Positions 43,731 to 46,093 of a stretch of 64,000 nt of DNA are shown here, piece after piece (position 1 is the first letter of the stretch; each line of letters starts with the position of its first letter). The notes beneath the pieces were generated by a model. That model searched no databases. It saw only the letters and a list, made by a program, of their open reading frames with translations, and had not been told where the DNA came from. The position numbers and the translations under genes were made by a program. The DNA is from Rickettsiales bacterium (GTDB lineage: Bacteria > Pseudomonadota > Alphaproteobacteria > Rickettsiales > JABIRX01): positions 1,687 through 65,686 of the forward strand of contig JAWUXM010000013.1 of assembly GCA_034111325.1 (NCBI GenBank), read 5' to 3'.

Positions 43731-43950
43731 TTTTTTGGTGCCTTTTTGCACCCTTTTTAGCATTCCGTTAAAGCTCCCTCTCCCTTAATCATAAGGGAGA
43801 GGGCTGGGGTGAGGGTTTGCAGGGTGTTAGGGTGAGGATAATTAGATGGACTCACTCACGCGGAACATTCACTAAAAATCATCACAAAAATTCTACCAAA
43901 ACACCCTAGATTTATACCTTCAGAATCCAAGATCGAAAATCTGAAGATTT
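43724..43950. repeat. Composite: a PE-1 copy split by a nested PE-2 element
   Basis: The PE-1 left end (AATCTAGTTTTTTGGTGCCTTTTTGCACCCTTTTTAGCA, 43724-43762) overlaps the last codon and stop of nfu. PE-2 lies at 43762-43820. The PE-1 right half (GAACATTCACTAAAAATCATCACAAAAATTCT...AGATTT) resumes at about 43862. Confidence 0.7.
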
Positions 43951-44083
43951 GCAACATCATATTGATTTAATAGCACATTTGCAAAGCAGCAAAGTTTAAC
44001 AAAAACCCTCTCAAAATTTACGCACTAGAAACTATTTCGATTTAGTTAAAAGAAAACTTTGACAGTTTATCTTATTTTTTAGA

Positions 44084-45064
44084 TCAAACCAACTCTTTTA
44101 ATGTCTTAATATTCAAATTTCGTACTGAATAAACTTTATCCATTTTTTCTAAGAAAGGTCTAGTTTTATATACTTCATCAGCAACAAAAATATATGTCCC
44201 ATGATTGGTAATGGTTTTTGCCTTCTCTTCATTCAAATCTAACCCTATAGTAATTTCTATACTAACATCTATTTTACTTGTAAGGGATGTTTTTATAAAT
44301 TGCTTATATCTTTCCCTTAAAGTTCTTTTTGCCCCGATTCCGTATGTTTTTTTATCGAGCTCAAAGAAAAAATCATATTCCGTACTTTTATCATTCTTAT
44401 CATGGATTTTTGTAATATTTTTTATGCCAGATTTGTTTAAAACAGAAAGTATCCTATTTTCATAATTCGACCCTGAATCAGATTTGATCGACTGGTCAAT
44501 GGATTCATTAAATATTAACATAAAAATTTGATTTGATTCCAAACCCTTCTTTTTAAGTTTTATTGCCGTCTTAGAAATATCTGCAATGATGTCACATGCA
44601 TTTTGAGACATGAAATTCACCTCTCCATTATTCAGCTTTTCAAAAAACAGCAATGCTAGCAATGCGCCGCTTACTCTGGCATTATAGGACTTTAATGCAG
44701 ATATTTTATCATATTCAAGTGATAAGGGGTGTAATTCCAGCAATTTACCCAGAGCTATAGTTCCTGATATTTTTGCTTCCTGTAATAATAAATCTTTAAT
44801 TTGGTATAGCTTTAGGCTAAAATCTAGGAGGTTTATGTCACTAGAATTTGCCAACCTTAAACCTATCTCCTTGACATGCTCAAGTTTAGACTGTGATTTG
44901 ACAAATATCTTTTCCAAACTTTCTATTAAAGCAGTTGGATTGCTTTTTAGAAGGTTGATATTTTCAATTATTAACATTGCTTGCGTATTTGCAGGCTTAA
45001 GCTTTAATATACTCTCTGCGAAGAAAGCAAACATTAAGTTAATATCTAATTTTCGAGCTCTCAT
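44084..45064 (-). CDS. PD-(D/E)xK-like nuclease (type II restriction endonuclease-like C-terminal core, helical N-terminal domain)
   Basis: 326 aa. The C-terminal third has SNYENRILSVL, EYDFFFEL and IGAKRTLRERYKQ. This resembles the K-x-T-x-[KR]-[DE]-R-[WY]-[KR]-Q signature of EcoRII-C/SsoII/NgoMIV/Cfr10I-class enzymes. ATGA overlap with the upstream HNH gene. Fold call is by motif only. Confidence 0.45.
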   Translation of the reverse strand: MRARKLDINLMFAFFAESILKLKPANTQAMLIIENINLLKSNPTALIESLEKIFVKSQSKLEHVKEIGLRLANSSDINLLDFSLKLYQIKDLLLQEAKISGTIALGKLLELHPLSLEYDKISALKSYNARVSGALLALLFFEKLNNGEVNFMSQNACDIIADISKTAIKLKKKGLESNQIFMLIFNESIDQSIKSDSGSNYENRILSVLNKSGIKNITKIHDKNDKSTEYDFFFELDKKTYGIGAKRTLRERYKQFIKTSLTSKIDVSIEITIGLDLNEEKAKTITNHGTYIFVADEVYKTRPFLEKMDKVYSVRNLNIKTLKELV

Positions 45065-45840
45065 AATAACTCTTTGTTAAAATAATTCTCCAAATGGTAG
45101 GCTAAAAAATCAAGATTTGGCAAAAATCTTTCAGGCAAGGATATCTTCTTCCCCTCAATTGGTTTGAAATATTTTTTAAAATAGTCTTTTTGATAAGATT
45201 TTTTTAGGTAATCCGAAAACACAATTGCATAACTTCTATCAAACCCTATCAATCCTCTATCAAAGCACTTATCGTAAAATGCATCAAGGCAAATACCATT
45301 TTCAGGATTTAATCGATTATTTTCATCATCGCCCCAAGGCTTAATATGACTAGCTATTAGTACAGAAGGCATATCTATACCTGAAATGGCACATTTATAA
45401 TTGTAATTTGCAAGAATAATTTTTCTAAATAAATTTTGATTTACTCTTGTTTTTACTATTCTTTCTTTTGTTAAACCTTTGAAATCCTTAATGTCTAAAA
45501 AATTGCGTTCATACTTTTTTTCTAATGTTTTGTTTTCCAATTTAGCTAGTATTAATTCACTTTCATACATTAAGTTTTCTCTATTACTAATGTATCTATC
45601 AAAAATTGGCTGACATTGTTTCTTCCCTCCTTTTAATCCCTTAATACCCCTGTTTTGATGAAATGGGTCAACATGAGCAAAATTAGACAGCCTCATTGCA
45701 ATTGATGATGGTGTCCTATTTAACAAATTAGCCAACTCCACGACTTCTGGTGTGCGATGATCCATCTTACCAAAAGGTAACCTTAAGTAGAGATTGAAAG
45801 TAACAATATATTCATGGTCTTGCCATATCTTGTTTTGCAT
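45061..45840 (-). CDS. HNH_2-type (PF13391-like) endonuclease with an N-terminal wHTH-like domain
   Basis: 259 aa. The C-terminal half reads RVNQNLFRKIILANYNYKCAISG...LIASHIKPW....NRLNPENGICL...YDKCFDRGLIGFD, the classic HNH_2 pattern (R.GQ..FR..V...Y...C...G.....L.A.HI.P........NGL.L....H..FD.G...). Confidence 0.7.
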   Translation of the reverse strand: MQNKIWQDHEYIVTFNLYLRLPFGKMDHRTPEVVELANLLNRTPSSIAMRLSNFAHVDPFHQNRGIKGLKGGKKQCQPIFDRYISNRENLMYESELILAKLENKTLEKKYERNFLDIKDFKGLTKERIVKTRVNQNLFRKIILANYNYKCAISGIDMPSVLIASHIKPWGDDENNRLNPENGICLDAFYDKCFDRGLIGFDRSYAIVFSDYLKKSYQKDYFKKYFKPIEGKKISLPERFLPNLDFLAYHLENYFNKELL

Positions 45841-45848
45841 TCAGTTCT

Positions 45849-45995
45849 TTAATTTTCTTCATAAGTCATTTGTGCGTATTTATCCCACTCCGAAGAAAAA
45901 ACACACTCCCCAAAAACACCCTCAAATCCAAGGCGTATGCCTCCAACGCCTGCGAAAAGATCAATAAATTTAAGGTTTTGGTTATTATTTATCAT
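45849..45995 (-). pseudogene. 5' stub (48 codons) of a DNA (cytosine-5)-methyltransferase
   Basis: Hand-translated as [48 protein letters not shown]. It contains C5-MTase motif I (F.DLFAG.GG) and the following [13 protein letters not shown] segment, as in M.HhaI/M.HpaII N-termini. It stops before the catalytic PC motif IV, 8 nt before the HNH gene ATG. Confidence 0.78.
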
Positions 45996-46093
45996 TTATA
46001 ATCATTATTTCCTTTTTGCTAACAACATTTTTTAGTGTAAAGTGCTAGCCTTATTTAGCATTGTTTTTTTCTCTGAATTATAACTATATAAGA

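Follow-up and report, generated by a model that had tools for sequence, protein, structure and literature searches.

In a 64,000-nt stretch of the genome of a Rickettsiales bacterium (the window: positions 1,687–65,686 of contig JAWUXM010000013.1, assembly GCA_034111325.1), a cytosine-5 (C5) DNA methylase gene is cut short and followed directly by two nuclease genes; we call the Dcm-type methylase M, the 259-aa HNH_2 nuclease HNH and the 326-aa endonuclease X. A single HNH_2 family has repeatedly taken over C5-methylase genes, this locus being one case, and the unusual part is that the partner endonuclease X has been retained, constrained and convergently remodelled. Restriction-modification (RM) systems are commonly regarded as difficult to shed, since a cell without the methylase is killed by the endonuclease; the loci compared here form a natural series in which the methylase was removed on at least three separate occasions, each time by members of one nuclease family, and so present an exception to that rule. 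By analogy, the closest described parallel is the DpnI/DpnII pair of cassettes.

Replacement of M in resident operons

The initial annotation had taken the 48-codon open reading frame (ORF) ahead of HNH for the start of a Dcm-type C5 methyltransferase, and profile searches bear this out: its residues 8–48 match positions 1–41 of the 324 in PF00145 (E 3.2e-14; 53.5 bits, cut-off 22), and the Dcm subfamily model NF007772 matches it at E 1.1e-15. This stub is 75% identical to residues 2–48 of the 334-aa methylase of a relative (G004) and has the motif I (FxGxGG) by which C5 methyltransferases bind S-adenosylmethionine. The catalytic motif IV (PCQ), motifs VI–X and the target-recognition domain (TRD) are absent, the ORF stopping after profile position 41; what is left is a piece of the gene and does not encode an enzyme. 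As had also been described, and as the ORF coordinates confirm, 8 nt separate the TAA of the stub (45849–45851) from the HNH ATG. The HNH TGA in turn overlaps the X ATG as ATGA.

Nearer relatives, of the same family or order, carry a full-length M of 330–334 aa, and there the end of M and the beginning of an X homologue overlap. Among roughly 70 X loci beyond the window, gathered from species-representative genomes and metagenome contigs, a cognate methylase adjoins X in about 58, where X lies directly behind an intact M with both genes on the contig (three of these are in the nearer relatives); it does so neither in the window nor in the other HNH-linked loci. The ancestral gene that the initial annotation had suggested looking for is therefore at hand, and both junctions could be mapped against it (Table 1). 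In a DNA alignment with G004 and a second relative, G005, shared sequence runs to ...GAA GAA AAT T and then ends; after AAT the relatives read TTT (Phe), whereas the window reads TAA, so the stop codon was made by the junction itself, and the earlier view holds: the break marks a replacement junction and did not arise by nonsense mutation. At the other end, the first six codons of the window X (MRARKL) are new and stand in for about 13 ancestral codons. Altogether some 1.0 kb was lost (M from codon 49 to its end, and the start of X) and some 0.8 kb with the HNH gene was gained. The missing 3' part of M was sought throughout the assembly (G000; 1.35 Mb in 51 contigs, 90.8% complete): a PF00145 scan returned the stub alone above the cut-off, and tblastn with a full-length relative returned only the stub (E 4.5e-17; next match E 0.38). 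By these alignments, the stub is the 5' remnant of M from a mobile two-gene type II M–X operon, in which an ORF-sized HNH_2 cassette replaced M from codon 49 to its end together with the first ~13 codons of X.

Table 1. Features of the window (positions and strand within it) and of the further loci in which X follows HNH
Feature	Position	Strand	Details
Low-GC islet, purK to NifU-like gene	43900..46093	.	26-35% GC against ~38-45% in flanks
X, predicted Ecl18kI/EcoRII-C-like type II endonuclease, 326 aa	44084..45064	-	ORF intact; start overlaps HNH stop
Putative catalytic Lys and R-E-R block of X, K246-x3-R250-E251-R252	44309..44329	-	alignment A4
Altered N-terminal motif, X residues 7-17	45014..45046	-	window DINLMFAFFAE, against M-linked (D)INLxFYxxLK
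Right replacement junction	45044..45050	-	placed to ~10 nt; homology to M-linked X resumes at DINL, X codon 7
HNH_2 nuclease gene, 259 aa	45061..45840	-	all-helical N-terminal domain ~8-101; His-Me domain H165, N181, K191
His-Me residues H165/N181/K191	45268-45348	-	within HNH ORF
Left replacement junction	45848..45852	-	homology to full-length methylase genes ends within the codon after ...TYEEN
C5 methyltransferase stub, Dcm-type	45849..45995	-	48 codons + TAA; motif I (FxGxGG) only
Presumed old M promoter and ribosome-binding site, intergenic purK/stub	45996..46093	-	presumed from operon layout only
L012 / L049			no stub; HNH 79% identical to window HNH; X motif HANKMLAFFAA (L012), YTNKMLAFFAA (L049)
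L013			stub ~39 aa, PF00145 1-27; HNH 72% identical; X motif SINYNFCFFLR
L102 / L103			stub 115 aa, PF00145 1-109 (L102); HNH 73% identical; X motif QINLSFNFFLG (L102)
L126			stub ends at same point as L102; HNH 72% identical; X motif IINLNLNFFLK
L127			contig too short for stub call; X motif IINLNFNFFLR
L029			stub ends ...GDITKIDENYE*, PF00145 1-55; HNH 32% identical; X motif MNKMFYYWLK (INL lost)
L124 / L125			stub 79 aa; HNH 39% identical; X motif NINLKACFFAQ (L124)

The same exchange recurs. HNH precedes X in eight further lineages, and the HNH genes found in M–X operons fall into three lineages that are mutually only 32–39% identical; together with the differing breakpoints, this depth of divergence indicates that M has been replaced in M–X operons at least three times. 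At one chromosomal site the two states can be seen as alleles, HNH–X in L012 and M–X in L015, with flanks 94% and 91% identical and exchanged segments of 942 bp and 1123 bp, respectively; no allelic M–X partner was found for the window locus itself. When X sequences are placed on a maximum-likelihood tree, those linked to HNH occupy at least four well-supported places among the M-linked ones. Taken segment by segment X is a mosaic: outside the first ~20 residues, the nearest M-linked lineage is a different one for each HNH-linked copy, and the stubs resemble the resident type of M. As X and stub both match resident lineages, the cassette moves into resident M–X operons or recombines with them. 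Several of the M–X loci (L016, L019, L026, L030 and L033) come from lake-metagenome-assembled genomes titled 'Rickettsia typhi isolate ...'; their content and context look like those of environmental or free-living Rickettsiales-like bacteria, and the species label is probably wrong.

Beyond M–X operons the family is found beside other broken C5 methylases. In L101, a gene for a C protein and a 471-aa methylase that lacks motif X (PF00145 1–310 of 324) precede HNH; in L116 of genome G054, which also holds an intact M–X pair, HNH follows a 233-aa stub of another methylase type; and in L119 of G175 it follows a 93-aa stub that ends just past motif IV. Behind its stub and HNH, L116 (G054:C16) also has part of another HNH_2 gene (99 aa) and a methylase of PF01555 type, and looks like a pile-up of defence-gene remnants. 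In Neisseria gonorrhoeae (L123) the order is pheS, vsr, a 133-aa stub, a 113-aa ORF, an intact 249-aa HNH and pheT; the record (NZ_CP119142.1, 370859–378596) is labelled a plasmid, and its 2.17 Mb mark it as the chromosome. Since the HNH family was present in only 4 of the 400 genomes sampled from the class, its association with dead C5 methylases is unlikely to be due to chance.

The two nucleases

HNH belongs to PF13391 (HNH_2; E 3.3e-12, 46.5 bits, cut-off 21) and matches the PADLOC model PDLC04132 at E 2.6e-83; NF045808 matches it over profile positions 110–283 only. In its AlphaFold2 model (predicted local distance difference test score, pLDDT, 87), the nuclease domain is nearest in fold to the modification-dependent enzymes VcaM4I and TagI (Foldseek 2e-6 and 4e-3), with a sequence E of 8e-13. 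The family has over 3,900 members, about 257 aa long, and those from Bacteroidota, Campylobacterota and Alphaproteobacteria are 55–80% identical. In other settings the gene is mostly found by itself, flanked by housekeeping genes, and no active cognate methylase was found beside it: it is either solitary or adjoins truncated C5 methylases. Behind solitary copies there is often an ORF of 74–77 aa that has no Pfam match (L099:4276–4500, L100:1146–1370, L101:3543–3776) and is absent where X follows HNH; it may encode, for example, an immunity or partner protein.

X matches the Pfam model EcoRII-C (PF09019) at E 0.005, weaker than the profile cut-off. Its AlphaFold model (mean pLDDT 78) finds its best Foldseek partners in Ecl18kI (2gb7/2fqz, E 1e-3) and EcoRII-C (3hqg), with probability 1.0, E values from 1e-3 to 4e-3 and template-modelling scores of 0.32–0.45, so that a PD-(D/E)xK core with the fold of the Ecl18kI/EcoRII-C/PspGI group is predicted. 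Across 35 aligned members of the family, the HNH-linked copies included, K246, R250 and R252 never vary, and E251 is kept in at least 90%. K246 and R250-E251-R252 would be the counterparts of K182 and R186-E187-R188 of Ecl18kI, the catalytic lysine and the RER block that reads CC:GG. Inactivation of X in its core was considered and rejected, as all presumed catalytic and recognition positions are kept. The TRD of M has Dcm as its sole match in the PDB (3me5/3lx6, E 2.5e-11), and the conserved core of M also matches M.HhaI; with a Dcm-type TRD in M and an Ecl18kI/EcoRII-C-like X, M–X is most likely a type II system for CCWGG or CCNGG.

The manner in which M–X operons decay suggests that X acts as a toxic restriction enzyme restrained by M: none of the M-linked loci has a disrupted M, and X is broken in several of them, by premature stops (L018/L051 and L059), by a split (G005) or by N-terminal truncation (L039, L040, L093 and L095). 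The split copy of G005 (L006, G005:C16, 1238–2168) consists of ORFs of 84 and 233 aa, with M intact and a transposase-like gene behind, and is an instance of this usual route, in which the restriction gene is lost first. All nine HNH-linked X sequences, by comparison, are full-length with an intact core. Between L012 and L049, which split after the swap, the ratio of nonsynonymous to synonymous substitution rates (dN/dS) is 0.05 for HNH and 0.13–0.15 for X, against 0.04–0.14 in M-linked pairs of similar divergence, although the value for X rests on 28 substitutions and recombination with M-linked alleles could push it toward constraint. These figures suggest that X stays functional under constraint without M.

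What has changed in HNH-linked X lies at its N-terminus. An N-terminal helix, (D)INLxFYxxLK, is present in 58 of 58 M-linked X sequences, some of them only ~45% identical to the window X, and F12, Y13 and K17 are conserved in every one; its codons vary synonymously, so the constraint on INLxFYxxLK acts at the protein level. In the HNH-linked set the motif deviates in nine of nine sequences (Table 1). When 120 further homologues were screened by this rule, the only three new full-length proteins without F12 or Y13 all proved to be HNH-linked. To judge from these sequences, the change is convergent across independent HNH lineages; it could be a prerequisite for life without M (through attenuation, nicking or an altered oligomeric state), or else X may have shed an element that matters only when M is there.

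Readings of the locus

The explanation we favour, to which we would give about an even chance, is that a context-specific, methyl-directed nuclease displaced its epigenetic opposite, M, in the manner of DpnI and DpnII, and that X was attenuated or re-wired. The old M promoter would now drive stub, HNH and X as a single operon, and HNH would be a modification-dependent (type IV-like) nuclease that cuts, in a context-specific way, DNA carrying the former methylation of M. A nuclease that cuts M-type methylation could not coexist with M, and the locus would thereby have inverted the meaning of the mark: methylation, once the sign of self, would now denote foreign DNA. X would have been kept in working order and tolerated without M through the changed INLxFYxxLK helix, which would attenuate or re-wire it. 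That HNH is methyl-directed is plausible from its modification-dependent-like nuclease domain, its solitary occurrence, the fact that only C5 methylases are broken beside it and the lack of a C5 methylase in G000. The initial annotation had allowed that either nuclease might be methyl-directed; for HNH this stays plausible, whereas X is of the classical type instead.

Several observations tell against such a displacement, in addition to the caution attached to the dN/dS of X. Only H165 and N181 of the H...N...H triad are present in HNH, the last histidine being a lysine (K191) family-wide. Its all-helical N-terminal ~100 residues gave no match to a known modified-base reader (PUA, SRA, EVE, SBD or NEco), and their Foldseek matches were weak and homeodomain-like; a PUA-like reader in HNH, sought by Foldseek, was not found. 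PF13391 also holds ordinary type II enzymes, AlwI, BbrI and HphI (PMC5714182). The HNH family moreover coexists with several intact C5 methylases in H. cetorum, in G041, in G054 with its intact M–X and in N. gonorrhoeae, so any methyl-dependence of HNH must be motif-specific; the coexistence of McrA with Dcm in Escherichia coli K-12 (PMC12707154) is a precedent. As for the chromosome, G000 has 569 CCWGG sites (observed/expected 0.45) and 626 CCGG sites, and no 4- or 6-mer palindrome is absent from it. A search of G000 over four Pfam methylase families found no protecting enzyme: PF00145 yielded no C5 methylase beyond the stub, PF01555 and PF02086 yielded no methylase, and the one PF02384 locus is disrupted. 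A cell's survival beside an active X would make sense only if the motif change tames the enzyme, and no path accounts for how a methylated cell would live through the swap.

The initial annotation had reasoned that loss of the methylase beside a classical restriction enzyme should be lethal unless the enzyme were inactive or protected in trans. X does appear to be classical, of Ecl18kI/EcoRII-C type; neither of the two ways out was seen, its core showing no inactivation and no trans-protecting methylase turning up in the four families searched. Two further forms of protection were considered and rejected: site avoidance, given the 569 CCWGG sites that remain in G000, and protection of a two-site enzyme by sparse sites, as 26% of the gaps between CCWGG sites are shorter than 500 bp against 19% expected at random. 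A match on contig C48, considered as a C5 methylase, is a RumA-like rRNA methylase instead. Contig C50, outside the window, holds a second broken methylase locus (L047:203–3069), in which a 217-aa HNH gene of PF01844 precedes an Eco57I-like N6 methylase that has a TAA inside its PF02384 match, only the C-terminal M_Eco57I_C part (E 2.6e-37) remaining open, over 369 aa. G000 may have no working DNA methylase at all.

A related possibility, which we consider unlikely but worth stating, is that HNH–X is a stable methylase-free module in which a methyl-directed HNH and a methyl-sensitive X act on the same site and cut marked and unmarked invaders alike. The chromosome would then be spared by a mechanism other than modification, tied to the loss of INLxFYxxLK, perhaps because X assembles into different oligomers, nicks instead of cutting both strands or is controlled by the HNH protein.

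We are similarly doubtful that HNH is a promoterless selfish or neutral cassette, indifferent to methylation, that needs a host promoter and translational coupling, uses RM operons as recombination-prone landing pads and takes M away as collateral. The junctions lend this some weight: no conserved 5' untranslated region accompanies the cassette, shared sequence beginning at the HNH ATG, which at the junctions read lies 0–8 nt from the stub stop or overlaps it by at most 11 nt. The identities of 55–80% across phyla imply frequent transfer, and HNH has no known modification-reader fold. A single homing-like insertion site can be dismissed, the breakpoints falling at PF00145 positions 27, 41, 55, 109 and 310 (others lie after stub-ORF residues ~66, ~93 and 233 in L124, L119 and L116). 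Indifference to methylation is hard to square with the disrupted gene always being a C5 methylase, of four unrelated types and with no other kind of host gene among them; with the many solitary copies between housekeeping genes, which can evidently be expressed without a methylase promoter; and with survival of the loss of M beside an intact X, which it leaves unaccounted for.

It is improbable that X is a harmless nicking or repair-type nuclease, an analogue of Vsr beside Dcm, and that M could be freely lost. The overlap of M with the X behind it resembles dcm-vsr, X persists under constraint without M, and the gonococcal Vsr was retained beside a truncated methylase. Against this stand the predicted Ecl18kI/EcoRII-C fold with its conserved K-x3-RER block, the mobile and low-GC character of the operon, as in RM systems, and the one-sided decay described above, which is the signature of a toxic restriction enzyme held by its methylase; and G000, having no C5 methylase, has no 5-methylcytosine deamination to repair.

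We would rate just as low the idea that X is fully active and the chromosome protected in trans by an undetected methylase or other modification, encoded in the missing ~9% of the assembly or belonging to an unrecognised family. The incompleteness of the assembly and the span of the search, four Pfam families only, leave room for such an enzyme, but none was found in G000, where the N6-methylase-like locus of C50 has an internal stop; the two other C5 methylases of G041, which has an independent HNH–X, have restriction partners of their own and non-Dcm TRDs; and the convergent loss of the X motif would not be accounted for. Least credible by far is that the islet is a dead remnant, with stub, HNH and X all non-functional, or the junction an assembly chimera: the methylase is certainly dead, but both nuclease ORFs are intact in the window and in eight independent lineages, the dN/dS values of HNH and X are low, and stub, HNH and X are collinear in independent assemblies (L013, L102/L103, L124/L125 and L126).

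Known parallels and surroundings

In Streptococcus pneumoniae, DpnI, DpnII and DpnIII are alternative cassettes (reviewed in PMC12707154; Eutsey et al., PMC4471560). Alternative cassettes at one site are likewise seen in L012 and L015, and in both cases one cassette has a methylase and a methyl-sensitive enzyme, the other being proposed here to be methyl-dependent; the opposite methylation requirements of M–X and HNH–X would follow the same pattern. The systems differ in chemistry, cytosine-5 and Dcm-type here against N6-methyladenine in GATC there, and in the incoming nuclease, HNH_2 here against PD-(D/E)xK with a winged helix there. Moreover, only the methylase is exchanged in the present case, the methyl-sensitive X staying behind with its N-terminus remodelled.

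With EcoRII–Dcm and Ecl18kI/SsoII (3hqg, 1na6, 2gb7, 2fqz; Dcm 3me5/3lx6) the M–X operon shares the Dcm-type TRD of M, the predicted fold of X and, presumably, its K-x3-RER block. The similarity of X to EcoRII and Ecl18kI is nevertheless marginal, at the Pfam E value given above and 11–17% identity in structural alignments; unlike EcoRII, X lacks an N-terminal effector domain, and in the window the methylase is gone. HNH resembles VcaM4I (EVE–HNH, 6yex), TagI (SRA–HNH, 6ghs) and EcoKMcrA in being a lone gene of two-domain layout, with a putative reader and a nuclease, and its nuclease domain is closest to theirs; it differs from them in a helical, helix-turn-helix-like N-terminal domain and in the lysine that replaces the last histidine of the motif. 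HNH may be a candidate new family of motif-specific nucleases directed at 5-methylcytosine, with a new reader domain, and if so the switch of epigenetic self known from DpnI and DpnII would extend to cytosine methylation and to uncultured freshwater bacteria. X, kept under selection with an otherwise invariant motif altered, would offer a handle on how type II enzymes are tamed or re-purposed.

The gonococcal NgoAXIII locus fits the same takeover pattern. There too the C5 methylase is cut short, to 133 aa where N. lactamica has 362 aa, and an HNH of the family comes behind it, with 40% identity across 97% of its length; the partner kept is Vsr, and a 113-aa ORF separates stub from HNH. The truncation of the NgoAXIII methylase has been published with no mention of HNH (bioRxiv 10.1101/630434), and PMC6116569 does not mention the truncation of M.NgoAXIII.

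A simple sigma-70 scan of the intergenic region between purK and the stub (45996..46093) gave no site, and an empty purK/NifU-like site was sought in relatives, which proved too distant (purK 39–48% identical) and had lost synteny. Between X and the NifU-like gene, a repeat element occupies positions 43735–43889 of the window and has many copies in G000, among them copies on contigs C3, C5, C16, C33 and C46 at 76–94% identity; short matches related to it are present in other genomes of the order.

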